Source: Acidobacteriota bacterium (GTDB lineage Bacteria > Acidobacteriota > UBA6911 > RPQK01 > JANQFM01). From it: a DNA stretch of 64,000 nucleotides. The notes beneath the pieces were generated by a model that worked only from the letters and a program-made list of their open reading frames with translations, was not told the DNA's origin and ran no database searches. Within the stretch, counting starts at the first letter, position 1, and every line of letters begins with the position of its first letter. Below are positions 22,445-63,452 of the stretch, piece after piece. A program made the position numbers and the translations under genes. The stretch lies in contig JBFKLX010000003.1 in the NCBI GenBank assembly GCA_041630155.1, forward strand, positions 1,915-65,914. The letters run 5' to 3'.

Positions 22445-22600
22445 GCCTTCGGTGCAGGAACGCTCGCGGGGACGGCCTCACGGCTCGCCAGACGCGAGCA
22501 ATCCCGCTTCCGGCCCTCCGATTCTCTCGCACAATATTGTTAGTATGATCGGGCACTGGTCAGTAAAACACAGACCTCGACGCGCGCGGAGCAGGCGAGC

Positions 22601-23347: not shown

Positions 23348-23350
23348 CCC

Positions 23351-26429: not shown

Positions 26430-26551
26430 GACCTGCGCTGGCTGAGGCGTCATCGCGGGACCCCGCAGGAGAGCCGCGAAAGAAAGAACTGCCCTGTCTC
26501 CGTTTCAGCAATCACGCTTCAGCGGAGGGGTGCTCCGAGTTCGAGGACGTC

Positions 26552-27451: not shown

Positions 27452-27617
27452 GGCACGACTCTGCAGCGGTTCTTCCGGGCGGCAGGGAGTCGAAGCCGGA
27501 TTGCGGCGGCTCAGCTTTCCACGCCTGTTCCCGCCACTGCCCGGATCGGAGCTTACTATAGACGAGTGTCGGCCATCGCTGCGAGGGCGATCCAAAAGCT
27601 GATAGCATGCAGAACCA

Positions 27618-38261: not shown

Positions 38262-38449
38262 GACGTAGCTCGCCCTGCGGCGACTCCCGGAGCGGATTTT
38301 TGCCCGGTCGTGTCGCCTCAGGGCCCGGGGCATCTGACTGCGCCGCTGGGGCATTCGGCCCGGAAGGGAGAACCTGATGTCCGGAACAGCGCATTGGCCG
38401 ACGCTCTAGGTTATCGGCGGGTACTGCGTCCCCCACTCTTGCCATTCTC

Positions 38450-38465
38450 TGGCACATCCCTTGCT
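38450..38465 (+). promoter_or_regulatory. Sigma-54 (-24/-12) promoter consensus TGGCACatcccTTGCT
   Basis: Exact GG-N10-GC spacing; ~180 nt upstream of the giant-protein ATG. Confidence 0.55.
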
Positions 38466-38645
38466 CGCAATAGCGGCAAATTCACGTTCTTTGCCCGCCT
38501 GACCTCGGGAAGAGGGGCCATGAGCCAATCCGCCAGCCTGTGTTCCGGACCAACCGAAGGGCCATTGGCTCGTCTCTGGCTTCACCCTCGGATGCCGTTC
38601 TCGGGGTGCCTGCGAGCAGCATCGAGAAACAGTCGGGAGACCGCC

Positions 38646-41600: not shown

Positions 41601-42743
41601 CCGGCTGCGGGAATGAGAGTGTTTCAAACCGACGGAGGAGGAGTTGGAGTGGCAGGATCGGCCGATGTTCGTTCCAGCCGTCCGCTGGCCGGAGTCTTGA
41701 TCTTCGGCGGTGCTTTCGGCTTGGCAGGTGTCGGCGACAGCCAGGATTTGACGGTATTCTCAGCACCCATGGAGAAAACCGATTCCCGTGGAATCAACAC
41801 CGGGATCGCTGTGATGAACGCAGCCGACGCGCCCACCGACCTCGACCTGCGTCTCCGTGGCGCCGACGGAGAGGAGCTGGCAACCGCCTCGGAAAACCTT
41901 CCGGGGAGGGGACACAAAGCGGTTTTTGTCGACCAGTTCGACTGGAGTCCGCCGGTCGACTTCAGCGACTTTCGGGGAGTCCTGGAGGCGAGCAGCAGCG
42001 GACCCATCGGAGTCACGGTCCTGCAGACCAGGCCGGGGCAGTTCGCCACCATGCCGGTGGCCCCGCCGCCGGGTGGCAGCGGATCGGCCTCTCCCGACCT
42101 GAATTTTGCTCAATTCGCCACCGGTGGAGGGCTGTCCAGTGAGATCATCCTTCTGAATCTGGACGCCGGAACCGAAGCCCAGGCGGAGGTGCATTTTCGG
42201 GACGACGTGGGGAATCCCTCGAGCTTCGAGCTGGACGGCGCCAGCGTCGACGGCCAGCTGCAGCTCTCGATTCCGGCGTCGGGGGTGAGGGTCCTCCAGA
42301 CGGACGGGAGCGGCCCGCCGGTCTCGGGCTCGGCCCGGGTCAGCTCCGATGCGCCACTGGCTGGGGTGCTGGTCTTCGGCGGCAGCTTCGGTCTCGCCGG
42401 TGTCGGGAGCAGCCAGGAGCTGACGGGTTTTCTGGCTCCGATGGAAAGGATCGCGTCCGCCGGCATCAATACGGGAATCGCAGTCATGAATGGGGACGAC
42501 TCACCGGTGAATCTGGACCTGCGGCTGCTGGACGTGGACGGCCGGGAACTGGCGACGGCCAATGAGACGATTCCCGCTCGAGGACACAAAGCGGTCTTCG
42601 TCAACCAGTTCGACTGGAGCCCGGCGATGGCTCTCGCGGACTTTCGCGGAATCATGGAAGTCACCAGCAGTGGGCGAATCGCCGTCACGGTCCTGCAAAT
42701 CCGCCCCGGCCAGTATGCGACGATGCCGGTGGGGAGCAGGTGA
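38646..42743 (+). CDS. Giant secreted protein (1,366 aa): novel N-terminal region, a Ca-binding D-x-N-x-D-G loop + beta-sandwich domain ending ...RGDSYPFPDGVIIEPGGPA, then a tandemly duplicated two-domain C-terminal module
   Basis: Signal peptide MAEPRFKFNSSQIVLLLGFWVALAGVAEPALA. Internal repeats LNFAQFATGGGL...(x2) and GINTGIAVMN...GHKAVFV.QFDWSP...(x2). Confidence 0.7.
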   Translation: MAEPRFKFNSSQIVLLLGFWVALAGVAEPALAGTYSNGVYEEQYFGGQATLRFEFRADEAIPISIREVVENYGGYVYPYTYFLIHHELRASIITYSVSGSAQVTLTRSSEQFDWSSRRLISANPFRMQVNTYYRFQLRASGQPDVYAYFTLEQTQAPPNVEMEVSATPWLDLEEPTRALIPADRRFPAKFKISLVDADSYPKEPFTEPQSVFVTLADSERGTLESLQTSASGRQITLTTDDKGEAEFQYVYLGNAPQSQPLQESIAIECPALGLEESASVSIGLKPEILEVVKRWDSRTQLPRTMGLRVQVRDEFWPDLDYLEYNRRLSLADPEGETLGVFLTTTWLNPPDEEGHIADFLEYLQMGFALSDEDEFYDGRGYVEILKGRYLFKAIDSPAVTLEMRFPAHVFVRPGTRWLTAQLELIVAPEEVASPLEKIFGTQSNTIIYAVDVMRGGESVLQSIACSFQPTTSAQYWVKYTLNHDYFKHALEVGGGAGYIVSMRTVQLFDLTCEYLQGNYFNVMQALVGEYLSNLDALRESGELELSAGEARQLARYLTVSEGKDMYDVLNFTADEILGNQDSRFSSWPPRGRRFTRPSESLPEIPPGVDLAELRQIFNESLLGLLAGMGEEGLEIIAVSNGTVQLLSPDSSPYPEESILAAVESEGSKIYLLPENTALLAVEHSGALQINRFLYGPGATMETAWYSVGDPQAPATSSLDCSQGLNAQLLVDAGSNGSVDETLAPATTSYTPSPDDLDGVAAVVEDQGPNGGDANRDGLLDSTQPNVASLPNAVDSRYVTLVSPAGTRLRGVQALEQIEADPAPEGVSFPLGLFEFHVEGLETGGSTTVEMLLPEGVQVNSYYIRGSTTGEGTDHWYAFPYDQETGSELEEDLVRLHFRDAGRGDSYPFPDGVIIEPGGPAFVIREDRLNFAQFATGGGLFSEVVLLNLDAETEADVEVYFRDDDGQPLSYQAGSREVPGFMHLSIPAAGMRVFQTDGGGVGVAGSADVRSSRPLAGVLIFGGAFGLAGVGDSQDLTVFSAPMEKTDSRGINTGIAVMNAADAPTDLDLRLRGADGEELATASENLPGRGHKAVFVDQFDWSPPVDFSDFRGVLEASSSGPIGVTVLQTRPGQFATMPVAPPPGGSGSASPDLNFAQFATGGGLSSEIILLNLDAGTEAQAEVHFRDDVGNPSSFELDGASVDGQLQLSIPASGVRVLQTDGSGPPVSGSARVSSDAPLAGVLVFGGSFGLAGVGSSQELTGFLAPMERIASAGINTGIAVMNGDDSPVNLDLRLLDVDGRELATANETIPARGHKAVFVNQFDWSPAMALADFRGIMEVTSSGRIAVTVLQIRPGQYATMPVGSR

Positions 42744-45387: not shown

Positions 45388-45822
45388 TCAGCGACCCATT
45401 TTTTCGATTGCGCCGGACAGCTCCATCATCTCTCCGAAGCTGACCGTTTCGACCTTGTTGAGCCGCTCCCGGAAGTCGGCGACCAACTCCGTGGAAAACA
45501 CCCTCCACTGCTCCGGGTTGACCGGGTAGATATGCCCTTCGAAGTGCAGATGTGCAGCCCGTATGCCGCCGGGAAAGGGTCGCGGCCATCGGATCGCGGC
45601 GGCACTCGCCTCGGTAGTCCCTCCTCCCGATAACTGCCCGACGATCGGTACCGGATCATCCCGGTAGAGATGGTCAGGGTTGATGCGCTGCAGTTGATGC
45701 TCTTTGATGAACGCACCAATGAACTCCCGCCTCGTGACCCAAATGTCGGCCGGCAGGCCCCAGATCCAACGCCAATGCCACCAGGCCACGCGCGGCCGGA
45801 TCAACTCGTATACTCCATCCAT
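45388..45822 (-). CDS. Hypothetical 144-aa protein, co-directional and immediately downstream of the radical SAM/SPASM gene
   Basis: No recognisable motifs; Trp-rich N-terminus. Confidence 0.4.
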   Translation of the reverse strand: MDGVYELIRPRVAWWHWRWIWGLPADIWVTRREFIGAFIKEHQLQRINPDHLYRDDPVPIVGQLSGGGTTEASAAAIRWPRPFPGGIRAAHLHFEGHIYPVNPEQWRVFSTELVADFRERLNKVETVSFGEMMELSGAIEKMGR

Positions 45823-45874
45823 AATTGCCTCCTATGCGGGTGGCGTTGCAGTTCGAGCGGTCAATGGTCGCCCG

Positions 45875-47011
45875 TCACAGGCTCTTTGCCTGGGGGCTCA
45901 GCAGACTGTTCACCAACGGCGCGCCACCCAGATGTTCAAAAAAGGTCGCACCTACTTTCTTCTCGAGGATCTGAAAAGCGTCGAAGGCTGCGCCAATGGC
46001 GGCTTTCTCCGAAGCACACAGGAAGGGGCCTACCCGGTTGTAGTACCCGGTCGAAAAATAGTTCGAGCAGCCGCACCAGTTCATGCAGTAGTCTCGCAAG
46101 CCGCAACTCGAGCACTCAGAATTGACGGATTCGCCCGCGGCCGTGTGGCAAAGCATCTTCCGGGGCTTGATCCCCTCGTGAACGTTGCCGATGCAGTGCC
46201 CGTTGGCTCCGTCACCGACGAGCCGCTCGCAGGGGTAGATGTCTCCGTTGGGTGTGAACGCGAATTCCCCGCGGCCCATACGGCAGCGCTCGAGCGGATC
46301 ATAGCCCTTGCGGAGGATCACGCTGATCTTGCTGTCGATGGGGCTGATGAAGTGGGGATCCTGGCGCAGGTAGTAGTCTACGTAAAGCTTCCCGATGGCA
46401 CCAAAGACCTGTGGAAGCGAGGCGACTTCGGCCGGTGTCCAGCGGGCGCTGAAATCGGGGTTGAGGTAAATCTGCCTCACGCCGAGTGAAGAAAAATACT
46501 CCACGGTGCGAGGCAGCTGGGCCAGGTTTTTGGGGCCGTAGACCGCGTTGACCATGACGGCCGAAAAAGCCTCCAGAGCCTCCCGAATCGTTCTCTCGAC
46601 GCGATCAGCGGTGCCGCGTCCGGAATGGAAGCGGCGAAACATGTTCTGGACGTCGGGTGGTCCGTCGCAGCTGATCCCGAAGCCCATGTCGTGCCGGGTA
46701 ACGAAGTCGGCGATTTCCGGTGAGAAGATGGTACCGTTCGTGACAATCGTGAGCTGCACGCGAGTCTCGTCGAAACGAGGGTGGCTCTCGATCAGCTTCG
46801 TGATTTCCTTGACGAGGTCGAACTCCAGGAGCGGTTCGCCTCCAAAGAAACCGACCTCCATCTTTTCGCTGAGCGGAGTGTGCCGGTACATGAACTCGAC
46901 TACGTCTCTTGCGACCGAGCGCGTCATGCGCGCCTTACGCTGACCGATGTAACAGTACCGGCAGGCCAGATTGCAGGATTGTGTCACCAGCAGAGTGTGT
47001 TTCATTCCCAT
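45875..47011 (-). CDS. Radical SAM enzyme with C-terminal SPASM domain, anaerobic sulfatase-maturating enzyme (anSME)-like
   Basis: CNLACRYC (Cx3Cx2C); anSME-like ISCDGPPDVQNMFRRFHSGRGTADRV; C-terminal Cys cluster CIGNV...CHTAAG...CSSCGLRDYCMNWCGC. Track ORF starts at GTG 47053; ATG MGMKHT at 47011. Confidence 0.8.
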   Translation of the reverse strand: MGMKHTLLVTQSCNLACRYCYIGQRKARMTRSVARDVVEFMYRHTPLSEKMEVGFFGGEPLLEFDLVKEITKLIESHPRFDETRVQLTIVTNGTIFSPEIADFVTRHDMGFGISCDGPPDVQNMFRRFHSGRGTADRVERTIREALEAFSAVMVNAVYGPKNLAQLPRTVEYFSSLGVRQIYLNPDFSARWTPAEVASLPQVFGAIGKLYVDYYLRQDPHFISPIDSKISVILRKGYDPLERCRMGRGEFAFTPNGDIYPCERLVGDGANGHCIGNVHEGIKPRKMLCHTAAGESVNSECSSCGLRDYCMNWCGCSNYFSTGYYNRVGPFLCASEKAAIGAAFDAFQILEKKVGATFFEHLGGAPLVNSLLSPQAKSL

Positions 47012-47489
47012 CCACAAACGGACTCGCGACTGCTCGCCGCGGGATGATCGCACCCCAATCGAAGACGATCAGGGGTGAGCGAAATTGCCCGACCCACTCG
47101 GTCCGCCTTCCGAGTCGTCAGGGTGAGCAGGCACAAGAGGGCGACCAGTCACCGGGTCTCCGACGAGTTCCCACATTGAGAAAACTCAATTCTGTTTCGT
47201 GTGACTACTAATGGCGCAGTTGGACTAATGAGTCAATAGCCATCTCTGAAGTGAATTGACACAAAAGTCAAAACAAGTCGGCATTGGGACAGCGGGCGGG
47301 GGTGACCGCCGGAAGGGTGTGTCCAAGGTTGGCTGAGTACGGACTGGTGGAAGGGGTCTTTCCCCGGCGGTACGAGCTCTCCACGTCCCGCCAAGGAGCC
47401 TGACGAAACGCCGAGGGTCTTCGACCCGCATCCGTCGCGTCGCCGTGCGACCCTTCGGCCTGTCTGCGGAAGTGCCCGTCGAGGGCGGC

Positions 47490-49961
47490 TTAGGGTGTTG
47501 TGGTGGGCTCAGGATCGGCAACGATCTGCGGAACCAGTGTGAGATTGCGGGTGATCGTCTGGCTGAAAGCGGCCACGGCCACCGGGCGGGAAGCTCGGAC
47601 GACCAACGAACGGGCAGGAGTTCTGGGATGCACGGGGAACCACCGGGGCAGGCGAGCTTCGAGTCGCTCGCGGGGGCCCAGTGTCGCTTTTCGGACGATC
47701 AGGGTATAGTTGCGACCTCTGTCCAGCTCCAGTTCGACCTGGGCACTCTCTTCGGACGAATTCAGGATGTAAAGGAACAAATCCGCTGCGCTTTCGGGTC
47801 GCAGCTCGAATTGGAACTGGGAGGCGAAGCGGGCCGCCGGAAACAAGACACTTCCTCGACCTGCCCCTTCCGTTTTCACGAACCCGGTCAGGGCTTCATC
47901 AGCGTTGACCTCGAGCCACCCGGTCCGACTGGCCCCTTCCCAGCTGGCAGGCCAGGAACGCACCTCGAGCGGTGCAAGCCGAAACATTATTTCGGTCGGA
48001 CTCGCCCCTGCCAGGAGCGGCATCTCAGCCTCGCTTCCATCGGTTCCGCCCAAACGCAGCGTTCCCTGCGCAGTCTCCAGCCCAGGATTGAACAGGACCA
48101 GACGGGTGTCCCAGCCCGGACGCGCTTGGAAGTACGGAAAAACGAGGTGGGTCTGGCGAGCCGCCAATCCCGCCAGCGGCACCTCTGCCGCACCCCACGG
48201 CCCCAGGAAGAGCAGGTGCGCGCTCACCGGGGAATCCGACCGCAGCCCGAGCCATCCCAGATCAGCAGGCCCGCCTCCCGGCAACCCGGTCGCGTCGTTG
48301 GCCGGCCAGAGCAGGCGGCCGGGGGGAAGGGTGATCGTTTCGCGTCCTCCTTTCGATTCACTCCAGCGGGAGCCGCGAATCTCCAAGATAGTAGTTGATT
48401 CGCTGGAATTCTCGAACAGCAAACGAGAACTGGTCTTGTCTCGTTCGGTAACAGGGAAGGAGGCCTCTTGGACCGGCTCGTCGTCCAAGACGGCCTGTTC
48501 CTTCATCCCGGCGAAGGCTACCTCCAGGAAGGCGGGATTCGAAGAGTCCGGTGGAAGATTCGTCTCGAACTTCCCGTTCCGGTAGAGCAAATGATAGCTG
48601 GATTTGGAGTCGGACGAATTGCGGCGCAGATAATCGTTCCAGTGGGGATAGACCTGCAGGCGGGAGGAGCCATAGGCGAGCCTGAGCAGGAATACTTGAT
48701 GATAGCGAGGGATGGGGGAGTTTTCGATCACCAGGACCGCATCCGGTGGAAGATCCGGATGCCTCTCGAACAGTGCAGTTGCAAACCCCCGCCACAGCTT
48801 GCCCCGGTAGAGAAAACTCCGCCGGCCGCGGTCGAAAGCGTCCCAATGCCAGGTGGCCAAGAGGACCAGAAGGACGCCGAAGGCTCCCAACTGGAGCCCC
48901 CGCCTGTCTCTGAACCGCTCTGTGGAAACGAGGCGAACCCCTTGCAGCAGGAGGGCAGCCAGGTAGAGGGCAAGGCCGAGAGCGGGGATGTAGAGAAAGA
49001 GTCCCCAAACACGAGGAAGCGGAAGCACCGGCGCCAGGACGAGCAGGAACCAGGCCAGGCCGAAAATCATGTGCCGGTTGCGCAGCATCAAAGCCAGGAG
49101 GGCGGCCATGGCGAGTCCGATCGACGCGCCGAGAGCCGAGAGTTCGAACCAGCCACCAGCCAGCTGTTCCAAATATTGAGCGAGGTTGTGAGGAATTGTC
49201 GCGTCGAGGTGGTAACGGTACAGAGGGTTTGTTGTGAAGCGGGTTGTTGGACCCCAGATTTTGCCCACGGCGTCGATCAGAGAGATCAGGAAGAAGGGGG
49301 ATAGCCGGACGGCGGATGCCGCCAGCACCCGCCTTTTCGGAGAGCAGTAGAGCAGCTGATAGAGCAGCAGGATCGCCGGCAGGAGAGCCGCAATTTCCTT
49401 GGCGCCGAGGGCCATCCCGAAACTGAGAAAAGAGAGAATGTAGGCCTTTTTCCGCCCACCCTCGAGATAGTTGAGGTAGAAGTGGAAACTGGCGCACATC
49501 AAACCCAGCGCCAGGGTCTCGTAAACCGCACCAAAGTTGTACCAGACGGTCACGTAGGCGGGGTGAATCGCCGCCAGCGCAACCGCGGTGGCAGCCAGGA
49601 AGCGCTGCTTCGTGATGCGCAGCAACAGGGTGAAAGCCAACACCAGATTGAGACTCGTCAGGATCAAGCCCGTCAGGTAGTAGGCCAGTGGATTCACCCC
49701 GAAGAGATCGTAGAGGATCACGTAGACGAGCCCGCCCACAGGGCGCTTGTAGTCCACCCAGAAATGAAGGTTGGCGAGCAGCGCGTCCTGCCAAGGCCTG
49801 AAGACGTAGTAGTGCAGGTTGCTGACGTCGTCGCCGGAAAGGTAAGCGCCCAGCATGGGGAGGACGAACGGCACTGAATAGAGGAGGATCAGAGCAAGCA
49901 GCAACGCCGAAAACCAGGAAGTTCGAAGACGAGAGTCCGGAGTTCGGCGGCGATCGTCCAT
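47490..49961 (-). CDS. Large polytopic membrane protein (PMT/ArnT/YfhO-like glycosyltransferase-type topology, family uncertain) with a C-terminal soluble module homologous to the giant-protein repeat module
   Basis: ~12 TM helices then LVFPYFQARPGWDTRLVLFNPGL... and FLYILNSSEESAQVELEL... segments resembling the 38646-42743 repeats; start MDDRRR at 49961. Confidence 0.55.
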   Translation of the reverse strand: MDDRRRTPDSRLRTSWFSALLLALILLYSVPFVLPMLGAYLSGDDVSNLHYYVFRPWQDALLANLHFWVDYKRPVGGLVYVILYDLFGVNPLAYYLTGLILTSLNLVLAFTLLLRITKQRFLAATAVALAAIHPAYVTVWYNFGAVYETLALGLMCASFHFYLNYLEGGRKKAYILSFLSFGMALGAKEIAALLPAILLLYQLLYCSPKRRVLAASAVRLSPFFLISLIDAVGKIWGPTTRFTTNPLYRYHLDATIPHNLAQYLEQLAGGWFELSALGASIGLAMAALLALMLRNRHMIFGLAWFLLVLAPVLPLPRVWGLFLYIPALGLALYLAALLLQGVRLVSTERFRDRRGLQLGAFGVLLVLLATWHWDAFDRGRRSFLYRGKLWRGFATALFERHPDLPPDAVLVIENSPIPRYHQVFLLRLAYGSSRLQVYPHWNDYLRRNSSDSKSSYHLLYRNGKFETNLPPDSSNPAFLEVAFAGMKEQAVLDDEPVQEASFPVTERDKTSSRLLFENSSESTTILEIRGSRWSESKGGRETITLPPGRLLWPANDATGLPGGGPADLGWLGLRSDSPVSAHLLFLGPWGAAEVPLAGLAARQTHLVFPYFQARPGWDTRLVLFNPGLETAQGTLRLGGTDGSEAEMPLLAGASPTEIMFRLAPLEVRSWPASWEGASRTGWLEVNADEALTGFVKTEGAGRGSVLFPAARFASQFQFELRPESAADLFLYILNSSEESAQVELELDRGRNYTLIVRKATLGPRERLEARLPRWFPVHPRTPARSLVVRASRPVAVAAFSQTITRNLTLVPQIVADPEPTTTP

Positions 49962-50097
49962 GTCGGAGCATTGTACATTTGAGCCCCGGGAGAGGCGACC
50001 AGTCCCCGGCCCGAACAGTTTCGCCCCAGCCTCTGGGCGCCCGGCCCACTCTCCAGCTGCCGGTTGCAGAGGATTGTCTTGGGGGAGTGCTGTCCGG

Positions 50098-50769
50098 TCA
50101 CCAGGGCGGTGAGATGATCGCATCTACCGGGGGCGCCGGATAGTACTGCATCGTTCGCTTGACCTTGCGCGCCATGTCGGGCGATGCAAAGCGCGCGACG
50201 AAATGCAGCGACATGTCGATGCCGGCGCTGATGCCCGCGGAGCTCAGGCATTTGCCATCATCCACGAAGCGGTCGTCGCCGCGAACGTCGATGTCGGTGC
50301 CCAGCCCCGCCAGCAGATCGAGACATTTGAAGTGCGTCGTGGCGCCCCGACCGTCGAAGACTCCGTAGGCGGCGTAAACGAGGGCCCCCACGCACACGCT
50401 GACCGGCATGGCGCCCGAGTCGAAGGCAGCCTCGAGCATCGCTTCGATGTCCGGTCGCAGACCTTTGTCGTAGTTGCAATCCACGAAGTGGGACTCCATG
50501 TTCTGCCCACCCAGGTAGAAAAGGGCATCCAGCGGCAGGACGTTGTCGGGCCAGATTTTGTCCGGGATGAGCTTCATTCCCTTGGCGCCCACGACGTGGT
50601 CGCGGCCGCCCGGCAAGGGAAGGGAGAAGGTGAAGAGGTCCACCTGGCGCTCTTCCGTTGAGCCCTTGGCCAGGAAGCGCCACCAGCCGAGAACCTCCAG
50701 GGGGCCGACCACATCCATCTCGTCGACGCGATCGAAAACGAAGATCCCGATGCGGAAGGGATTGGCCAT
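50098..50769 (-). CDS. DJ-1/PfpI family protein
   Basis: MANPFRIGIFVFDRVDEMDVVGPLEVL; nucleophile-elbow Cys in SVCVGALVY. Confidence 0.7.
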   Translation of the reverse strand: MANPFRIGIFVFDRVDEMDVVGPLEVLGWWRFLAKGSTEERQVDLFTFSLPLPGGRDHVVGAKGMKLIPDKIWPDNVLPLDALFYLGGQNMESHFVDCNYDKGLRPDIEAMLEAAFDSGAMPVSVCVGALVYAAYGVFDGRGATTHFKCLDLLAGLGTDIDVRGDDRFVDDGKCLSSAGISAGIDMSLHFVARFASPDMARKVKRTMQYYPAPPVDAIISPPW

Positions 50770-51179
50770 GTCGAACCTCCAGGGTCGTGAACCGTGCGAA
50801 GGCTCGCGAAACCGGATCGCCGGAGCCTCGATCCACGGTTTTCCTGAGCAAACCCACACGAAGTCCGTCGGGAGGATCTGCAGTCTCGGCGACTGGCTAC
50901 TCTGATGGAGCCCTCGACGGACCTCTTGCCACCCCCGGGGCCGTCCGTGGCGACGCCTGGTCAGCGCGGCGCTTCCGGCGCCCCGTCGACGAGGAACGAT
51001 AGAAAGATCGCCCACGACCCCTGCAACATATGTGACTGTGATTGATGATTCCAGCATTACGATATGCGGACGGAAGAGGCGGCGTCAAGGGGAATCTGGG
51101 GAACGGAAACGGACCGCACCCACGGCGCGGCCAGACCGAACCCCACTCGTGAAACCTCAACTGGAAAGTTCGAACTCCC

Positions 51180-51484
51180 CTACCATCCCTGGGGGAGTCT
51201 TTGCCAGTCGCGCGACAGGTAGTCGCTCATCAGGAAGGCCAGCAGGATCACCAGCCAGAAGAAGCCGGCGCCGGCGTAGACCCAGGTGAGGCGGCTGCTG
51301 TAGCGGACGTGCATGAAGTAGAGGATGACCAGAGTGGCCTTCAGGATGGCGATCGAGAGGGCGAGGATGGTGTTGTAGCTGCCGGGCAGGTCCAGGAAAG
51401 CGGCCCAGACGGTCAAAAGCGTCAGGACCATGAGGGAGGAGAAGATCACCAGATAGACCCTGATCGGGACGACGTGATCGGACA

Positions 51485-51485
<1 letters not shown>
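51180..51485 (-). CDS. Cytochrome c oxidase subunit IV (caa3-type small subunit)
   Basis: 101 aa, 3 TM, last gene of the cox operon; start overlaps the coxC stop. Confidence 0.6.
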
Positions 51486-53827
<2,342 letters not shown>

Positions 53828-53831
<4 letters not shown>

Positions 53832-54802
53832 GGGTTGCTCACGGTCCTTTCCGGGGCGGTCGGCGCCTGGCTGGACGCCTGCAAAGACTTGACATAGGCA
53901 ATGATCTGCAACAGGCCGGTCTCATTGATTTGCCCTTGAAAGGTGGGCATGATCTGGGAGTATCCGGCTACCATCTTGGCGCCTGGATTGAGTATCGACT
54001 CACGAATGTAGGCTTCGTCCGCCAGGACGGTCTGTCCGCCCTGCAGCCGCACCGGCTGGCCCCACAACTGGGCCAGATCGGGGCCGCGAGCGCCCGAGGT
54101 CTCGTTGTGACAGGTGTTGCAGCGCAATTGTTCGAACAGCTTTCGGCCCGACACTTCCAGGGGTTCGCCGGCGCCGGCGCCGCTCAGCCAGCTCTCGTAG
54201 TCGACCGGGTCCATGACCGTCACCCAGCCGATCATTTGCGAATGTTTGGTGCCGCAGTACTCGGTGCAGAACAGGTGGTAGCGGCCCGGCCTGGTGGCCT
54301 CGAACCAGGCGCTGGTCTAGCGTCCCGGCAAGACGTCCATCTTGATGCGAAACGCCGGGATGAAGAAGCTGTGAATGGTGTCTTCGGAGGTCATGGTCAA
54401 GCGCACGGGCTGTCCCACGGGCACGTGCAGGGAGTTGATCTCCCGCTGGCCGCTGGGGTGCTGAATCTTCCACATCCACTGCTTGGCCACCACCAGCATG
54501 TCCAGCGTGTCCGAAGGCGCCCGGTTCATCTTGTAGTAGAGCGACGTCCCCCAGACGAAGATCCCCATGGCGATGACGAAGGGAATGATCGTCCAGGTCA
54601 GCTCCAGCTTGAGCGAACCGACCAGGGGCCTCGGCACTTCGAGCTCGGACTTGCGCCGGTAGCGGATGGCGAAGTACGTCACCAGCGAAAAGATCAGGAC
54701 CGAGAAGAAGAGGCTGACCGCGATCAGGAAAAAGTAGAGGGTGTCGACCTCTCCCGCGATCGTCGAAGCCTGTTCGGGAAACAAGAACGAATCAGACCAC
54801 AT
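53828..54802 (-). pseudogene. coxB: Cytochrome c oxidase subunit II with C-terminal cytochrome c domain (caa3-type), interrupted by one in-frame TAG (plus-strand 54317-54319)
   Basis: Same frame on both sides of the TAG: ...[42 protein letters not shown]... (intact CuA site H-C-E-C-H-M) and CNTCHNE haem motif downstream. Confidence 0.8.
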
Positions 54803-54825
54803 AAGCGTTGAACCCGTATCCTTTG

Positions 54826-55686
54826 TTAGCGGTGCGCAACTCCCCGTCCTGCGGTCACTTCTTTGGCGCGCTCGGCGCGCAGGAACCAGATCATCATGCC
54901 GACCACTCCCAGCAGCGTGAGCAGTGCGGCGATCCGGAGCACGTTCATGATCACCAGGCTGTAGCGGCCCAAAGCGGGATCGTAGCGGAAACAGTACAGC
55001 AGCACCTGGTCCACCGGCGTTCCGATTCTGCCTGAAGCCGCCTCCACCAGGGTCAGCCGCAAATCACGAGGCGAGTACTCGACGCCGAAGAAGTAGCGGG
55101 CGACCTTTCCCTCGGGCGTGAGGACCTGAATGGCGCTGGCGTGGCTGTACAGGTCCGTCTCGGGCTCGTAACGGTAGCGGAAGCCCACCGCGTCGGCCAG
55201 GGCCTGGATAGATGCCTCGGGGCCGGTCAGGAAGTGCCAGCCGGCGGCGCCCTCCGGCCGGCCGTACCCTTTGACGTACACCCCCTTCTTGTCATTCGCC
55301 ATCTGCGCCGTCTCTCCGGGGTCGATACTGACGGTCACGATCCGGTACTCCTCGCCCAGATCGAACTGGAGGGGGCGGATCGCGCGCAGCACTCCGTTGA
55401 GGATTTCCGTGCAGAGCATGGGGCACTCGTAATAGGCGAGGACCAGGACGACCGGCTGCCGGCCGAAGTAGTCGCCCAGCCGGACGGTCCGCCCCTGCTC
55501 GTCGGTGAATTCGGCATCCAGAGGTACCTGGGCGCCCAGCTTCTGGTCGATTCCCACGTTCTGCAGGCCGGGCGGCCGCTGGTCGGCGTTCAAGACTTGG
55601 CCGTGTGCTCCGGACATCAGCGGGCCGAACGCCAGCACCACGGCCGGTGCGGCCAGCCGAAACCAGTTTTGCTTCACTCTTCTCAT
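54826..55686 (-). CDS. SCO1/SenC family copper chaperone (thioredoxin fold, CxxxC), membrane-anchored
   Basis: CPMLC motif; N-terminal signal/anchor from MRRVKQN; C-terminal TM. Confidence 0.75.
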   Translation of the reverse strand: MRRVKQNWFRLAAPAVVLAFGPLMSGAHGQVLNADQRPPGLQNVGIDQKLGAQVPLDAEFTDEQGRTVRLGDYFGRQPVVLVLAYYECPMLCTEILNGVLRAIRPLQFDLGEEYRIVTVSIDPGETAQMANDKKGVYVKGYGRPEGAAGWHFLTGPEASIQALADAVGFRYRYEPETDLYSHASAIQVLTPEGKVARYFFGVEYSPRDLRLTLVEAASGRIGTPVDQVLLYCFRYDPALGRYSLVIMNVLRIAALLTLLGVVGMMIWFLRAERAKEVTAGRGVAHR

Positions 55687-55721
55687 CCGACTCACGTACC
55701 TTCCTCGATGGGCCAGTCCGT

Positions 55722-56072
55722 CTACCGGGCGTCCGGCCTCTGGGGTGGCGCCTGGACTTCCGGCAGACCCCGTTCCAACAGCAACTGCATGGCTCGTTCG
55801 ATGGGAATCCGCACGACTTGGCCGTCCCGGTCGATCCACTGGTAACTCTCCAGCATCTGGGAGCTTCTCATCCGGTACTGCTCCAGGTCGATGCCGGGAG
55901 CGGGCTGCAGTCTCGGCAGCGGGGGCAGGGGATTGGGTTCTGCCAGGGGTGACGGCAGGATGTCGACTGCCGCCTGCCGCTCTTCCAGGAAGTCGAACAT
56001 CCCGATCATGCCCACGAAAGCGATCACCGAAGCCACCGCCAGTATGACGGTCAGCCAGACGATCGGTTTCAT
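55722..56072 (-). CDS. Small membrane-anchored protein within the act-cox operon (possible accessory subunit)
   Basis: Single N-terminal TM (MKPIVWLTVILAVASVIAFVGMIGM), then a Pro-rich linker and soluble domain. Confidence 0.4.
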   Translation of the reverse strand: MKPIVWLTVILAVASVIAFVGMIGMFDFLEERQAAVDILPSPLAEPNPLPPLPRLQPAPGIDLEQYRMRSSQMLESYQWIDRDGQVVRIPIERAMQLLLERGLPEVQAPPQRPDAR

Positions 56073-56124
56073 CTGGACATCGGTTTGTTCGTGTTTGGGA
56101 GGTGCAGGCTTCCCCGGCGTCGGG

Positions 56125-57315
56125 TCAACCATGTTCGACCATCCTCTCTCCGAAGGCCTCTCTCAGGCGCGGATCGTTGATGGGCAGCAGCGCCCGATCC
56201 TTCAGTTTGTGGCACAAGACGGCCAGCCAGAGCCCGCCCAGTCCCAGAAAGGCCACCGGGTCGGTCCACTGCACGTTGAAGCCGGCATGATGATCGATCC
56301 CAGGGACGATCAGGAAGAACAGGTCGGCGATGCGCAGCAACAGCAGCGCCCCGGCCAGCAATCCCAGCACTCGAGCCCGCTGTTTGTTGCTTCGCGAGAG
56401 CAGCAGCGCGAAGGGCAGGGCGAAATGAAAAACGATCAGGAAAATCGCCAGGTACTCCCAGCCGCCGTGGGTGCGGCTGAGATACCAGGGGATTTCCTCC
56501 GGCAGATTGCCCGACCACACGATCAGGTACTGCGAGAAGTTCAGATAGGCCCAGAGCATCACGAAGGCGAGCAGAAGGTTGCCCAAGTCGTGGAAGTGCT
56601 TGGGTTGAACGATCTTGGCCAGCGGCTCGTACGGGCGCAGCCAGCGCAAGCAGAGAACCGCGAACGCCAGGGCCGCCAAACCGTAGCTCTCCAGGAAGAT
56701 CAGGCCGTAGATAGTGGAGAACCAGTGGGGCTCGAGCGACATGGCCCAGTCGATCGAGCTGAAGGTGATGGTGGCGCCCATCAGCAAGATTCCCGGCCCG
56801 CTGATCAGCTGCAGCTGGCGTGTCAGCCCGGGGTCTCCGGTCCGGTCCTGCTGCACCGAGCGCAGGTTCAGGATGTAGGCCCAGGCGATCCAGAGGGCGA
56901 AGTAGAGGGCGGCGCGGCCGATGAAAAAGGGGACGTTCAGGTAAGGCTGCTTGAGCTGCAGGAGTTCGTCCTGCGCGACGGCCTCGGGGCGAGCCCATTC
57001 GAACAGCTCGGGCAGTCCGAACAGCAGCGGGATGAAGAGAACCCCTACCAGAGGAAAGGTCCGCGTGACCGCCTCCAGGATGCGACGGATCACGAAACCC
57101 CAGCCGCCTCCCACCATGTGATGAAGCATGAGAATCGCCAGCGAACCCACCGTGATGCTCAGGAAGAAGAGGTAGCTCAACAGGTAGGATCGGAAGAAAT
57201 GCCCCGGGTGGACGGAGAAGGCCACGGCCAGACCCAGGACGCCCAGGCCGCCGGCGATCAGGAAGCGACCCCGGAGTCGGTCCAGTTGGTTGGCCAGGGC
57301 TTCGGCGACTTTCAT
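56125..57315 (-). CDS. actF: Alternative complex III subunit ActF (NrfD/PsrC-like membrane protein)
   Basis: Polytopic NrfD-like protein following actE. Confidence 0.75.
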   Translation of the reverse strand: MKVAEALANQLDRLRGRFLIAGGLGVLGLAVAFSVHPGHFFRSYLLSYLFFLSITVGSLAILMLHHMVGGGWGFVIRRILEAVTRTFPLVGVLFIPLLFGLPELFEWARPEAVAQDELLQLKQPYLNVPFFIGRAALYFALWIAWAYILNLRSVQQDRTGDPGLTRQLQLISGPGILLMGATITFSSIDWAMSLEPHWFSTIYGLIFLESYGLAALAFAVLCLRWLRPYEPLAKIVQPKHFHDLGNLLLAFVMLWAYLNFSQYLIVWSGNLPEEIPWYLSRTHGGWEYLAIFLIVFHFALPFALLLSRSNKQRARVLGLLAGALLLLRIADLFFLIVPGIDHHAGFNVQWTDPVAFLGLGGLWLAVLCHKLKDRALLPINDPRLREAFGERMVEHG

Positions 57316-57887
57316 GGGCGTTCCTCGATCGTGACTCCCGCCGGCACGTCGGCGGGTGTGGCATTCTGGCTCAGCTGCAGGGCTCGAATGTAGGCGATGA
57401 TCGCCCAGCGGTCCTCCGGTGCGACCCGGGACGCATAACTGTACATGGCCCCGAAGCCGTTGGTGATGACGTCGAAATAGTAGCCGGGCGGCGAGCCGCG
57501 CAGCCGATCGATGTGGAATGAGGGGGGCGGACGCAAGCCACGTTGCACGATCATCCCGTCTCCGTATCCGGCATGCCCATGGCAGGGCGAGCAGAAGATG
57601 TCATAGCGCTCCCGGCCCCGCTCGAGCAGCTCCCGGGTCAATTCCAGCGGGAGGGCGGCGGCCGGCTGACCATTCACCTTGCCCGTGTAGAGATGCTCGT
57701 CTTCGTGGAGCTGGCCACGCGCCACGGTGCCCTCCACGACGGGGCGCGAGGCCCGGCCGTCCCGGAAGAACCGGCTCTCGGCCAGCGGCTTGTAGCGCGG
57801 CTGATCGTGCATGTCCATCCGGCAGCCTCCCGTGAACGCCCCCAGGGCGAGCAGAAGTCCCGCAGCCGGTCCCCTGGGCAGCCTCAT
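57312..57887 (-). CDS. actE: Alternative complex III subunit ActE (monohaem cytochrome c lipoprotein)
   Basis: Lipobox LLLALGAFTGGC; CSPCH haem motif. Confidence 0.75.
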   Translation of the reverse strand: MRLPRGPAAGLLLALGAFTGGCRMDMHDQPRYKPLAESRFFRDGRASRPVVEGTVARGQLHEDEHLYTGKVNGQPAAALPLELTRELLERGRERYDIFCSPCHGHAGYGDGMIVQRGLRPPPSFHIDRLRGSPPGYYFDVITNGFGAMYSYASRVAPEDRWAIIAYIRALQLSQNATPADVPAGVTIEERP

Positions 57888-58423
57888 GACTCCACCTCGT
57901 GGACTCCGTGGGCGCCCAGGCCCTCCAGAAAGTCCCGGGTCTTCTCCCGGTCGTAAAGGGGATCGCCGGCCTCGATGCAGAGGAAGAATCGGTTGCGAGT
58001 GGCCAGCTTGAAGCGATTCACGTTGAACACCGGATGGTACGGCATCGGCAGCCCGTTGAGGGCCAGCATTCCCAGCACGGCGGCCAGAGCGGCTGCCAGG
58101 ACGGTGGTCTCGAAGGTGATGGGAATGAAGGCGGGCCAGCTGTGCAGCGGGCGCCCCCCGATGTTGAGAGGGTACTCGATGACGGTCGCCCAGTACTGCA
58201 GGCCGTAGCCCCCTAGCGCTCCCAGCAGGCCTCCCGTCAGAACGATCAAAGGCAGCCAGGTCCTCTTGAACCCCATCGCTTCGGCCAAGCCGTGCACCGG
58301 CAGCGGCGTGTAGGCGTCCATCTTCCGAAAGCCGGCGGCGTGAGCGGCGGTGGCAGCCTGGAGAATCTCCCCCTGGCTGCGGAATTCCGCCAGCATGCCG
58401 TAAGCCGGAAGTTCTCGACTCAT
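57884..58423 (-). CDS. actD: Alternative complex III subunit ActD
   Basis: Position and size; two central TM helices; DUF3341-like. Confidence 0.7.
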   Translation of the reverse strand: MSRELPAYGMLAEFRSQGEILQAATAAHAAGFRKMDAYTPLPVHGLAEAMGFKRTWLPLIVLTGGLLGALGGYGLQYWATVIEYPLNIGGRPLHSWPAFIPITFETTVLAAALAAVLGMLALNGLPMPYHPVFNVNRFKLATRNRFFLCIEAGDPLYDREKTRDFLEGLGAHGVHEVES

Positions 58424-58436
58424 GCCTCGTCACTCC

Positions 58437-59810
58437 TCAATGATGCGTCGTGTCCTCGCCATCGCCGCGCCCCGGCAGCAAGGTCCGCATTTCGAAAATG
58501 GAAATCATCGGCAGGACCCGGATGAACAGGAACAGCAAGGACAGAAACAACCCCAATGTGCCGATGTAAATGGCCCAATCCCAGAAGGTGCCGGCATACA
58601 TGCCCCACGAGGAAGGCAGGAAATCGCGGTGCAGGCTGGTCACGACGATCACGTAGCGCTCCAGCCACATGCCCACGTTGACGATCAGCGAGACCACGAA
58701 CAGCATGCCCGCGTGGTTGCGAACCTGCCGGATCCACAGCACCTGGGGCGTCAGGACGTTGCACAGGATCAGCATCCAGTACATGTACCCGTACGGTCCC
58801 GTCATGCGGTTGGCCATCATGTAGCCTTCGTAGATGCTTCCGCTGTACCAGGCGAAGAAGGTTTCCATCATGTAGCCGTAGGCGACGATCAGGCCGGTGG
58901 CCAGCATGATCTTGGCCATGTTGCGCAGGTGGCGCATCGTGATGAAGTCTTCCAGCCCGTAGAGTTTGCGGATCGGGATGGCCAGCGTCATCACCATCGC
59001 GAATCCCGAATAGATCGCTCCGGCCACGAAATAGGGCGGGAAAATGGTGGCGTGCCAGCCGGGAACGATTCCGACCGCGAAGTCGAAGCTGACCACGGTG
59101 TGAACCGACACCACCAGCGGCGTGGCCAGCCCAGCCAGCAGGAGATAGGCCGTTTCATAGCGAAACCAGTGGTACGCCGAGCCCCGCCAGCCCATGGCCA
59201 GCATGCCGTAGACGACGCGCGCCAGCTTGACCTTGGTGCGGTCGCGCAGGGTCGCCAGGTCGGGAATCAGCCCCACGTACCAGAACAGCAGCGAAACCGT
59301 GCCGTAGGTCGATACGGCGAACACGTCCCAGACCAGGGGGCTCCGGAACTGGGGCCACATCAGCATCGTGTTGGGGTAAGGCACCAGCCAGTAAGCCAGC
59401 CAGGGGCGCCCCGTGTGCAGCAGTGGGAAGATTCCCGCGCAAGCCACCGCGAACAACGTCATGGCTTCGGCGAACCGGTTGATCGACGTCCGCCAGTCCT
59501 GCCGCAGCAGCAGCAGGATGGCTGAGATCAACGTTCCGGCATGGCCGATACCGATCCACCAGACGAAGTTGATGATGGCGAATCCCCAGCCCACCGGAAC
59601 GTTGATGCCCCACACGCCCACGCCGATCAGAAGGGTGTAGGCGATGGCGTAAAGCATCAGCATCAGCAGCGTGAAGGCACCGGCGAAGCCGATGAACCAG
59701 CCCAGAGGAGTTCGGCCCGTCAGGACGATCGCGCTGATCTTGTCGGTGACCGAAGCGTAGGAGTGGCCCGGCTCGATCACCGGGGGTGGCAGTTCCGGTG
59801 GGCTACTCAC
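58437..59810 (-). CDS. actC: Alternative complex III subunit ActC (NrfD/PsrC-like quinol-interacting membrane subunit)
   Basis: 10-TM NrfD-like sequence WGINVPVGWGFAIINFVWWIGIGHAG. Confidence 0.85.
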   Translation of the reverse strand: MSSPPELPPPVIEPGHSYASVTDKISAIVLTGRTPLGWFIGFAGAFTLLMLMLYAIAYTLLIGVGVWGINVPVGWGFAIINFVWWIGIGHAGTLISAILLLLRQDWRTSINRFAEAMTLFAVACAGIFPLLHTGRPWLAYWLVPYPNTMLMWPQFRSPLVWDVFAVSTYGTVSLLFWYVGLIPDLATLRDRTKVKLARVVYGMLAMGWRGSAYHWFRYETAYLLLAGLATPLVVSVHTVVSFDFAVGIVPGWHATIFPPYFVAGAIYSGFAMVMTLAIPIRKLYGLEDFITMRHLRNMAKIMLATGLIVAYGYMMETFFAWYSGSIYEGYMMANRMTGPYGYMYWMLILCNVLTPQVLWIRQVRNHAGMLFVVSLIVNVGMWLERYVIVVTSLHRDFLPSSWGMYAGTFWDWAIYIGTLGLFLSLLFLFIRVLPMISIFEMRTLLPGRGDGEDTTHH

Positions 59811-62805
59811 TGCTGATCTCCGGGTTGGGGTTTCTCAGCCGCGCCAGATAGGTCGTCCGCGGCTTGGTGTTCAATTCCGTGAGGATTCCGTAGTTGAGCG
59901 GGTCGGCTTTCCATTGGGAGACCTGGCTGGCGGGATCGTTGATGTCTCCGAATACGATGGCCTGGCTGGGGCAGACCGCCTGGCAGGCCGTCCGCACTTC
60001 GCCGTCCCGGATCTTGCGCTTGGCGACTTTGGCGTCGATGCGAGCCGCGTTGATCCGCTGCACGCAGTAGCTGCACTTCTCCATGACTCCCCGGCTGCGC
60101 ACCGTGACGTCTGGATTTCGCATCAGTTCGAGGCTGCTCGTCTCCCAGTCCTGATACAGGATGAAGTTGAAGCGCCGCACTTTGTAGGGACAGTTGTTGC
60201 TGCAGTAGCGCGTCCCCACGCAGCGGTTGTAGGTCATTTCGTTGAGGCCTTCCGGACTGTGAGTGGTGGCGGCCACCGGGCAAACCACCTCGCAGGGGGC
60301 GTTCTCACAGTGCTGGCAAGGCAAGGGCTGGTGCACGAACTCGGGGTTGTCCAACTCTCCCTTGAAGTAACCGTCGACGCGAATCCAATGCATTTCGCGT
60401 CCCAGAATGACCTGCTCCTTTCCCACCACGGGAATGTTGTTCTCCGACTGGCAGGCCACCACACAGGCGTTGCAGCCCGTGCAGGCGCCCAGGTCGATCG
60501 CCATGCCCCAGGCATACCCGGAGTATTCCCAGGGCGGGTAGAGCGTGAAATCCTCCGGGAACTCGTGCCCCATTTCGTGCACGAACTCCGGGTGGGATCG
60601 ATAGTTCTCCAGAGTTCCCTCGCGGACCAGGTGCCGGCGCTCGGCTTCGGACGAGGCCTCCACCTGAACGGCGAAGTGGCTCTGCGTGGAGGCGAAGCGG
60701 TAGCCGCTGCCGCTGCGCGAGATCTGCACCCCGGAGGCGTGCCAGAGGCCATCGGAAGTCCGCAGCGGGTAGGCGTTGAAGCCCACCCGGTTGCCCACCC
60801 GTCCGGCGTGGGTCCTGCCGAATCCCAGGTGAAGGCAAAGCGTGCCGTCGGCCTGCCCGGGAATGATCCAGGCTGGTCCCTCCACCCGGCGCTCTCCCAG
60901 GCTCAGGACCACCCGGTCGCCCGTCGTGAGGTGGAGGTCTTCGGCGGTGGCCGGGCTCATCAGCACCGCGTTGTCCCAGGTCAGCTTGGTGAACGGTTTG
61001 GGCAGCTCTTGGAGCCAGCCGTTGTTGGAAAGCTCTCCCTGGCCGATGGCAGGGTCGGCGCGAAAAATCACTTCCAATCCGGAGGATGGCGGCTCGCTCG
61101 GCCCGCTGTCCCAATCCGCCTGCAGCGCCACCGTGACTGGAGCCGCCTGGGTGCCGGCCACGACGCCGTCGTGGATGCTCCTCCTCCAGAGCTGATCGAA
61201 ATCGCCGCCCGGGGTCCGCTGCTGCCAGTGCTCCCGGACCAGATCGTAGCTGCGAGCCCCGGGACGGCCCAGCAGGGCGGCCACCACCTCGAGGTCGGTC
61301 TTGCCGCCGTAAAGGGGCTGGATCAAGGGCTGCAGGATCGACGTGGTGCCGTCGAAGGCTCGGGCGTCGCCCCAGCTCTCCAGGTCGTGCGCTGCCGGAA
61401 TGTGCCAATGACAGCGAGCCGAGGTTTCGTCCTCGTAAAGGCTGAGATGAACCCGCAGGGCGACCTTGTCCAGCTCTTCCGAAAACTCCAGATCGGCGGG
61501 CGCGTCGTAAACCGGGTTCCCCCCCAGGATGAGCAACACTTCGACGCGGCCAGCCTGCATATCGTCGGACAGCCGGCGCAGCGATTCCAGCTCAACGGTG
61601 GGCTGGGCTTCCACCGGTTCGGTGTAGTGGATGGTCGTTCCCACCGCTCCCAGGCGTGCGTTGCAGGCGTGGGCCAAAGCGTGGACCGCAGCCGGGGCTT
61701 CCTCCCCGGCAATCACGACGCAGCGCCCGCCGCGCCCGCTCGAGTCGCGCGCCACGCTCCGAATCCAGCTCTCGTGCGCGCTTTGGCCACCCCCCTGGAC
61801 GGCGACACCCAACTCGGCCGCCAGCGACCGTGCCAGGCCTTCCAATTCGCCGGCCTGTGCGGCCAGCCGGTGGTCGGCCATGGAGCCGGTGACCGTGGGC
61901 GTCGCCTCCACTACGTAGAGGCGGTTCATCTCCCCGTCTCCCCCGTGGACCCGGCGCCCGGCGGCGAAATCGCGCGCGTAACGCAGGCTGCCCGGGCCGC
62001 TGAACAGGAAGTCGGCGCCCAGCGAGACGATCACCTCTGCGCGACTCAAGTCGTAGCGGGTTTCGACGAAGCGCCCGAAGGCCCGGCGAGCCCCTTGGCG
62101 GACCGAGTCCCGGCCGGCCGCCCTCCACTGATGCCAACGCGCCTGGGGAAACTGCTGCAGCAACTCTGCCAGCAGGGCGCCGAGGGTCGGTGAGGTGACG
62201 GTCTCGGTGAGAATCCGCAGTCCGCCGCCGCCACCCGCCTTCTGGGTTTGCAGAGGTCCCCCCAACTCCTGCAGGAAGGTGTCCCAGGTGCTGATTCGGC
62301 CCGTCTTGCGGACGACTTGAGAGCGGTCCGGGTCATAGAGCCCCAGGATGGCGGCCTGGACCTGGGCGCTGGTAGCGCCGAGGCTGGCCGGGTGGTCCGG
62401 GTTGCCCTCGATCTTGGTGGGCCTTCCCATGTGGCTCTCCACCAGAATGCCCTGCCCGTAGCCGCCCAGCCTGGAGGCCGTGGCGTAGAAGAGAGGCCGC
62501 CCCGGAATCAGTTCCTCCGGCTGTTTCACGTAGGGGACGATCTTCTCGAGGGGCTGCTTGGTGCAGGCGCCCAATCCGGCCAGCGCCAAAGAGGCGCCCA
62601 TCAAGCGGAGGAAGTTGCGCCGTCCCACAGGATCGGTCCACTCCGAGGCATTCTCGGGGAATTCCCGCTGCAGGAAGGATTTGAACTCTTCAGTTTCAGC
62701 CAGCTCCTCCAGGCTGCGCCAGTATTTTCGACCCCGGAGCCGGTCCAGCTTTCCCCGGATGCGCCGCAAGTCGATGAGTTCCCGTGAATTGGCTTTGTCG
62801 CTCAT
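59803..62805 (-). CDS. actB: Alternative complex III subunit ActB (molybdopterin-oxidoreductase-like domain fused to 4Fe-4S ferredoxin domain), TAT signal
   Basis: RRNFLRLMGASLALAGLGA TAT motif; C-terminal CTGCNACVVAC, CQHCENAPC, CSNNCPYKVRRFN, CSYC ferredoxin clusters. Confidence 0.85.
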   Translation of the reverse strand: MSDKANSRELIDLRRIRGKLDRLRGRKYWRSLEELAETEEFKSFLQREFPENASEWTDPVGRRNFLRLMGASLALAGLGACTKQPLEKIVPYVKQPEELIPGRPLFYATASRLGGYGQGILVESHMGRPTKIEGNPDHPASLGATSAQVQAAILGLYDPDRSQVVRKTGRISTWDTFLQELGGPLQTQKAGGGGGLRILTETVTSPTLGALLAELLQQFPQARWHQWRAAGRDSVRQGARRAFGRFVETRYDLSRAEVIVSLGADFLFSGPGSLRYARDFAAGRRVHGGDGEMNRLYVVEATPTVTGSMADHRLAAQAGELEGLARSLAAELGVAVQGGGQSAHESWIRSVARDSSGRGGRCVVIAGEEAPAAVHALAHACNARLGAVGTTIHYTEPVEAQPTVELESLRRLSDDMQAGRVEVLLILGGNPVYDAPADLEFSEELDKVALRVHLSLYEDETSARCHWHIPAAHDLESWGDARAFDGTTSILQPLIQPLYGGKTDLEVVAALLGRPGARSYDLVREHWQQRTPGGDFDQLWRRSIHDGVVAGTQAAPVTVALQADWDSGPSEPPSSGLEVIFRADPAIGQGELSNNGWLQELPKPFTKLTWDNAVLMSPATAEDLHLTTGDRVVLSLGERRVEGPAWIIPGQADGTLCLHLGFGRTHAGRVGNRVGFNAYPLRTSDGLWHASGVQISRSGSGYRFASTQSHFAVQVEASSEAERRHLVREGTLENYRSHPEFVHEMGHEFPEDFTLYPPWEYSGYAWGMAIDLGACTGCNACVVACQSENNIPVVGKEQVILGREMHWIRVDGYFKGELDNPEFVHQPLPCQHCENAPCEVVCPVAATTHSPEGLNEMTYNRCVGTRYCSNNCPYKVRRFNFILYQDWETSSLELMRNPDVTVRSRGVMEKCSYCVQRINAARIDAKVAKRKIRDGEVRTACQAVCPSQAIVFGDINDPASQVSQWKADPLNYGILTELNTKPRTTYLARLRNPNPEISSE

Positions 62806-63452
62806 CGATGGCAAATCGAACAATTGGTCAAGTTGGCGATTTCGTACGCTTGCATCAGCGCGCGGCCCTGCTCCAGTTGATCGGCCGGCGGCCGCCAGTC
62901 GACGTTGAGCACTTCCGGCAGCGGGCGCACGTATTTCTCGGGGTTGCGGTGGCAGTCCAGACACCACTCCATGAAGAGCGTGTTGGCTTTCCAGACCAAC
63001 GGCATCTGGTCGACCTGGCCGTGGCAGGTGGTGCACCCGATGCCCTTGCTGAGGTGGATGCTGTGGTTGAAGTAGACGAAGTCCGGCAAGTCGTGGACGC
63101 GATTCCAGACCAGGGACTCACCGGAGCGGTAGCTCTCCCGGACCGGTTCCAGCATCGGGCTGTCCGACCAGATCTGGCTGTGGCAGCTCATACAGGTCTC
63201 GGTGGGAGGGATTCCCGCGAAGGCGCTCTCCTCGACCGAGGTGTGGCAGTAGCGGCAGTCCACCCCCAGGCCGTTGACATGGTGCTTATGGCTGAACATC
63301 ACGGGCTGTTCCTTCGACTCGCCCACTTCGGTGAAATAGGCCGAACGGTACACCGTGGCGGCCAGCCAGGCCATCGCCCCGAGTATGAAGACCGCGCCGA
63401 AGATGCTCACACGCGCCAGCGTGTTCGTGCTCCGGTGAAAAGTCTGCCCCAT
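62802..63452 (-). CDS. actA: Alternative complex III subunit ActA (pentahaem cytochrome c, membrane-anchored)
   Basis: Five CxxCH motifs (CRYCH, CMSCH, CTTCH, CLDCH, CSICH); N-terminal TM. Confidence 0.85.
   Translation of the reverse strand: MGQTFHRSTNTLARVSIFGAVFILGAMAWLAATVYRSAYFTEVGESKEQPVMFSHKHHVNGLGVDCRYCHTSVEESAFAGIPPTETCMSCHSQIWSDSPMLEPVRESYRSGESLVWNRVHDLPDFVYFNHSIHLSKGIGCTTCHGQVDQMPLVWKANTLFMEWCLDCHRNPEKYVRPLPEVLNVDWRPPADQLEQGRALMQAYEIANLTNCSICHR

Follow-up and report, generated by a model that had tools for sequence, protein, structure and literature searches.

The act-sco-cox operon and its interrupted coxB

The analysed DNA, hereafter the window, is a single 64-kb stretch in which coxB (53828-54802, minus strand) belongs to a 12-gene single-strand cluster running from 63452 down to 51180 in the order actA-B-C-D-E-F, a 136-aa ORF (orf136), sco, coxB, coxA, coxC and coxD. 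The six act genes, all on the minus strand, are intact: actA (62802-63452), actB (59803-62805), actC (58437-59810), actD (57884-58423), actE (57312-57887) and actF (56125-57315), identified by Pfam together with tblastn. They are followed on the same strand by orf136 (55722-56132), also intact, and by sco (54826-55686), directly upstream of coxB, which encodes a 286-aa SCO1/SenC copper chaperone by Pfam and whose exact protein is present on four other contigs. Downstream of coxB lie coxA (52182-53831, minus strand), intact and encoding 549 aa that match the Pfam COX1 profile over positions 1-436 of 436 (E=6e-152), coxC (COX3 by Pfam; 51485-52189, minus strand; 234 aa in the sister gene call) and coxD (COX4_pro; 51180-51485, minus strand; 101 aa in the sister gene call). 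The ATG of coxA overlaps the TGA of coxB (ATGA), which implies translational coupling of the two genes.

Consistently with the initial annotation, which had described the rest of this operon as intact, the 11 neighbours of coxB were uninterrupted, with near-complete Pfam coverage for those matching specific respiratory families, and tblastn showed the operon to be syntenic with the related loci L011 (JBFGHG010000006.1), L012 (JBHHYX010000011.1) and L013. All other genes with a Pfam match throughout the 64 kb were uninterrupted as well, and their strong domain matches covered the profiles. As a separate observation, orf136 matched no Pfam family but its position is conserved in L011, L012 and L013, with 46-60% identity. 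Possibly it encodes an accessory subunit of ACIII/caa3 that has yet to be characterised.

The coxB frame extends from an ATG at 54802 to the TGA at 53828, i.e. 975 nt and 324 sense positions including the interrupted codon 162. Translation of 53828-54802 yielded a sole in-frame stop, the TAG (amber) at codon 162 (54317-54319, minus strand). When this position was masked, the 324-residue product matched COX2_TM, COX2, Cupredoxin_1 and Cytochrome_CBB3. The N-terminal transmembrane pair and the periplasmic cupredoxin domain scored above their gathering scores (PF02790, 2.8e-7; PF00116, 8.7e-18); the C-terminal cytochrome c domain (PF13442) reached 23.5 bits, slightly below the gathering score of 27, and matched 1w2l_A with E=1.5e-15. 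The product aligned with Thermus caa3 subunit II (2yev_B) in a single alignment spanning the stop (E=2.7e-37). Translation, Pfam, this alignment and the homologues thus identify the coxB product as subunit II of a caa3-type oxidase, bearing a cytochrome c domain at its C-terminus.

The TAG divides the functional residues of the protein. If it terminates translation, the product is a 161-aa stub (54320-54802, minus strand) that consists of two transmembrane helices and the N-terminal half of the cupredoxin domain and includes H144, the first CuA His, in the motif TIHSFF (residues 142-147, 54362-54379). The 3' part beyond the TAG (53828-54316, minus strand) encodes the CuA loop (54233-54268) with C179, E181, C183, H187 and M190 (C179-x3-C183-x3-H187-x2-M190), the haem c motif CNTCH (residues 228-232, 54107-54121) and a probable axial Met in IMPTF (residues 284-288, 53939-53953). 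The CuA ligand set H...C-x-E-x-C-x3-H-x2-M is therefore complete in frame but split by the TAG. These residues line up with the corresponding ligands in 2yev_B and 1m56_B, and their assignment is based on established COX2 knowledge and the alignments. The initial annotation had placed all CuA ligands and CNTCH downstream of the stop, which holds for the Cys-Cys-His-Met loop and for CNTCH, but not for the first His, in TIHSFF, which lies upstream.

Codon usage pointed to coding sequence on both sides of the stop: GC3 was 0.91 in the 80 codons upstream and 0.86 in the 80 codons downstream, and no other stop in the window is flanked by so strong a coding signal on both sides. The two halves of coxB are not a chance pair of ORFs. 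The single in-frame TAG within an otherwise intact caa3-type coxB is thus a real feature of this sequence, located at codon 162, with no other stop and with conserved coding sequence on either side; in all other respects coxB is an ordinary caa3 subunit II within an ordinary ACIII-caa3 operon.

Tyrosine is the usual residue at codon 162

Alignment to coxB orthologues revealed the residue that normally occupies the interrupted position: of the 120 best homologues, which ranged from 54 to 84% identity (54-84%) and were full length throughout, 108 have Tyr and the others V, I, F or L. The closest full-length homologues in the protein search were 82-84% identical. At the DNA level, relatives carried TAC (64 loci) or TAT (13 loci) in 77 of the 83 loci from genome collections in which the site could be located, and none of these 83 loci had a stop at this codon. 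The GTDB species representatives and JGI metagenomes that were scanned contained other species only (best identity 82% and 67%, respectively), and this comparison therefore informs the ancestral codon rather than variation within the population. Taken together, the alignments indicate that Tyr is the ancestral state and, since relatives mostly carry TAC or TAT, that TAG is one third-position transversion away from an ancestral TAC.

Conspecific assemblies carry an intact coxB

Several proteins of the window recur unchanged on short contigs of other MAG assemblies. Conspecific contigs were found through the ActF, ActD, Sco, orf136, CoxC and intact CoxB proteins, and overall the conspecific sequence fetched was 99.6-99.97% identical to the window. 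In addition, a contig from run SRR29257462 was 100% identical to window 54791-55788. Contigs from three independently assembled MAGs span the site: L172 (GCA_041627235.1), L176/L182 (GCA_041617115.1) and L183 (GCA_041622135.1), 99.6-99.95% identical to the window. In all three, codon 162 is TAC (Tyr). The coxB frame, interrupted in the window, is uninterrupted in L172, L176 and L183, and the three assemblies encode one identical intact 324-aa CoxB. Over the 975 nt of coxB, the TAG/TAC base is the sole difference between L172 and the window. In the protein collection, the intact CoxB occurred on three contigs, while fragments of 161 and 135 aa were present on the 67,266-bp source contig only. 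The intact conspecific protein had been missing from the first protein search, likely because the representative of its 90% cluster is the 135-aa fragment, whose score would be too low for it to appear.

Since the three conspecific contigs have TAC and the truncated products occur on the source contig only, the TAG is private to one assembly and corresponds to a C-to-G change. The normal coxB allele of this species is intact. Microdiversity among about nine conspecific MAG assemblies was ~0.03-0.4% in aligned, non-chimeric stretches (window 1803-9520, 21325-27896 and 48563-60869, compared with L171-L191). Besides the three assemblies that span the site, the sisters include GCA_041592685.1, GCA_041625595.1, GCA_041612415.1, GCA_041594635.1, GCA_041600635.1 and GCA_041586375.1.

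coxB shows no sign of long-term decay

A premature stop is what would be expected of a long-standing pseudogene in a lineage that is losing its caa3 operon, a reading to which we attach almost no credence. The TAG is the single lesion. Measured against L011, coxB had a dN/dS of 0.215 in the part before the TAG and of 0.167 in the part after it, which is thus equally constrained, and Tajima-type relative-rate tests with two outgroups gave chi-squares of 0.05-3.6, none of them significant, indicating that the window lineage is not accelerated; the largest value arose from an excess of changes on the L011 side and not on that of the window. Moreover, the 11 operon neighbours are intact, and the intact alleles of the conspecific assemblies refute such a long-standing pseudogene. 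The ordinary pseudogene with accumulated damage that the initial annotation had considered was accordingly not borne out, as we detected neither further lesions nor relaxed selection.

TAG acts as a terminator in this genome

Programmed decoding of UAG, whether by a suppressor tRNA(CUA), by pyrrolysine insertion or by context-dependent readthrough with near-cognate tRNA-Tyr or tRNA-Gln, would restore full-length CoxB. It fits the open and conserved frame on either side of the TAG, and the base after the stop is A, reportedly a relatively leaky context for amber suppression in E. coli. The stop, however, is not conserved even within the species, the three sister assemblies having TAC, and it was found in 0 of the 83 relatives' loci. 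Furthermore, three genes of the same operon (actB, orf136 and coxD) end in TAG, as do the genes ending at 802, 9639 and 12732; in the amidohydrolase among these, the Pfam match reaches the last residue, directly before the TAG at 9637-9639. In the 82%-identical relative L011, actB likewise ends in TAG at the homologous position. The window contained no tRNA gene, no match to an Rfam family and, among its Pfam matches, no pyl-like gene (pylTSBCD). The 126 nt from the TAG onward folded no better than shuffled sequences (MFE -42.7 versus a shuffle mean of -44.3, z=+0.43).

Programmed UAG decoding is consequently very improbable, and the conspecific TAC alleles and the use of TAG as a terminator effectively exclude programmed readthrough or reassignment. 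The statements of the initial annotation that TAG ends other genes here (the amidohydrolase at 9639 and the gene at 802) and that genome-wide reassignment is unlikely were both confirmed. Among the explanations that it had offered, an error and a recent nonsense mutation or strain variation stand, in agreement with the three TAC sisters, whereas programmed readthrough or suppression does not, given the unconserved stop, the lack of a tRNA or an Rfam match in the window and the lack of an unusual structure downstream of the TAG.

A recent nonsense allele or a consensus error

Two origins of the private TAG have to be weighed. We slightly favour a real, very recent strain-level nonsense allele over a consensus error. 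In this case, TAC would have changed to TAG (Tyr162 to amber) by a private single-base substitution carried by the strain or sub-population that dominates the sample behind this MAG. Alternatively, and quite possibly, the TAG is a consensus, assembly or sequencing error: the true codon would be TAC and coxB functional, and a miscall, or a path with little support in the assembly graph, would account for the G at 54317 (coding strand).

We compared the private differences of the window with those of its sisters. Over the 23.7 kb covered by at least two sister contigs, the window had 15 private differences: eight synonymous, three nonsynonymous, three intergenic and one nonsense (the coxB TAG). 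Eight of the 12 coding changes were thus synonymous, against ~27% expected for random substitutions (p=0.005). As random errors would be mostly nonsynonymous, the window consensus looks accurate and its variation real, which argues against an error at codon 162. The source contig is also the longest of the set (67 kb), which suggests good coverage, and no further interrupted gene was seen in the 64 kb. On the other hand, nonsense changes make up ~4% of random substitutions, but among variants filtered by selection they are expected only rarely; the TAG site could thus belong to a small number of errors in the window. A majority null allele of a main aerobic oxidase in a sample is, a priori, uncommon.

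Several other features point to an error. The TAG stands alone against TAC in three other assemblies, and coxB is otherwise perfect and under purifying selection. Related MAG contigs (for example L011, with the title k141_..._cov_10) point to short-read de Bruijn assembly at modest coverage, and sister contigs break or turn chimeric inside coxB and coxA. The sister-private singletons (n=34), several of them near contig ends, were rich in nonsynonymous changes (22 versus 12 synonymous), suggesting that errors do occur in this dataset. Finally, the change creates CTAG, a tetranucleotide that this genome strongly avoids. A literature search on these assemblies or comparable cases yielded nothing useful.

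Regarding this tetranucleotide, CTAG occurred 17 times in the whole window compared with ~220 expected from base composition, one of these occurrences being made by the coxB TAG (GCTAGA). That the change creates such an avoided site fits a new feature rather than a maintained one.

Assembly problems in the cox genes were visible in the sister contigs. L171 (GCA_041592685.1, JBFHPQ010000276.1; 4121-4338) tracks the window to about codon 19 of coxB and, below window position 54741, continues after a 1-nt deletion with 218 nt of unrelated Ala/Glu-rich coding sequence that matches no relative; this end is probably a chimeric misjoin inside coxB. The ends of L179 (1-250) and L183 (2750-2848), corresponding to window ~53010-53214 and below 52611, respectively, switch to the coxA of a different species, being 85-92% identical to other loci that were fetched. 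Related populations occur together, and assembly becomes entangled in the conserved cox genes.

Consequences if the allele is real

If the nonsense allele is real, translation would end at codon 162 and release a 161-aa membrane stub retaining one CuA His. Devoid of the Cys-Cys-His-Met loop and of haem c, this stub would leave the ACIII-linked caa3 oxidase without its electron entry site and hence inactive, making the allele a predicted null. With the stop 490 nt ahead of the start of the translationally coupled coxA, expression of coxA, coxC and coxD might be lowered as well through polarity. Basal near-cognate readthrough would provide at most traces of full-length CoxB. That a real TAG allele coexists with some full-length CoxB, owing to a strain-specific amber suppressor tRNA or to efficient near-cognate (Tyr/Gln) readthrough at UAG-A, seems to us a far-fetched combination; were it true, a respiratory complex would be kept by stop-codon suppression in a natural, uncultured Acidobacteriota population.

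A functional split gene with re-initiation downstream of the stop was considered and rejected. The stretch from the TAG to M190 contains no in-frame ATG, GTG or TTG, which means that re-initiation cannot restore the CuA site, and a C-terminal piece would presumably lack an export signal.

The coxB TAG provides no evidence for altered genetic decoding. At most, it shows that a natural population of Acidobacteriota harbours a segregating allele in which the ACIII-linked caa3 oxidase has lost its function and, if real, it is relevant to how respiratory capacity varies at the level of microdiversity. Should it be an artefact, it illustrates that lone nonsense codons in MAGs need comparison with conspecifics and with reads before recoding is proposed.

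Other loci in the window

Four further regions of the window drew our attention. A 1477-aa ORF (38310-42743, plus strand) has good coding statistics and no Pfam match at E<=0.01, and its C-terminal half contains two internally similar segments, recognised by eye in the translation. Three genes at 11378-14187 (minus strand) encode a protein of 413 aa whose C-terminal part contains two cytochrome c domains, and proteins of 172 and 303 aa that have no Pfam match, one of them His-rich; this cluster is possibly a small module with a redox or metal-related role. At 45388-47053 (minus strand), a radical SAM/SPASM protein (392 aa) adjoins a 144-aa protein with no Pfam match, and at 5307-6914 (plus strand), a 72-aa ORF is followed by a B12-binding radical SAM protein (535 aa). 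Both loci could be involved in peptide modification.

Comparison with known systems

The architecture of the window coxB is that of Thermus thermophilus caa3 subunit II/c (2YEV chain B), with a pair of transmembrane helices, a cupredoxin domain for CuA and, fused at the C-terminus, a mono-haem cytochrome c; the Pfam domains are the same. The alignment covers residues 24-284, and Thermus has a Thr aligned with the TAG (PGQTT versus PGR*TS in the window). The window copy differs in being interrupted and in its location in an act-sco-cox operon.

The ACIII-caa3 clusters of Acidobacteriota and their relatives, such as L011 and L012, have the gene order of the window (actB-C-D-E-F, a small ORF, sco, coxB, coxA), and L012 also has coxC and coxD. 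The operon proteins of the window are 60-91% identical to those of L011. Relatives of this type have an uninterrupted coxB in which codon 162 reads TAC or TAT in place of the TAG of the window.

Pyrrolysine systems (pylTSBCD) occur in Methanosarcinales and in some Bacillota and Deltaproteobacteria. With amber suppression or pyrrolysine decoding, the window coxB shares only a UAG inside a conserved ORF. In contrast to these systems, its UAG is unconserved in conspecifics, UAG terminates genes of the same operon, and the window has neither a tRNA(CUA) nor pyl genes.

A further parallel is offered by the nonsense polymorphisms and consensus errors of MAGs, which, like the coxB TAG, are single private base changes in one assembly with no further decay, other assemblies of the population having the sense codon. 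Compared with other nonsense singletons of this sort, the coxB TAG has nothing distinctive, and it merely happens to strike a central respiratory gene. It is a singleton nonsense codon such as is expected occasionally in MAGs, be it a segregating null allele or an error.
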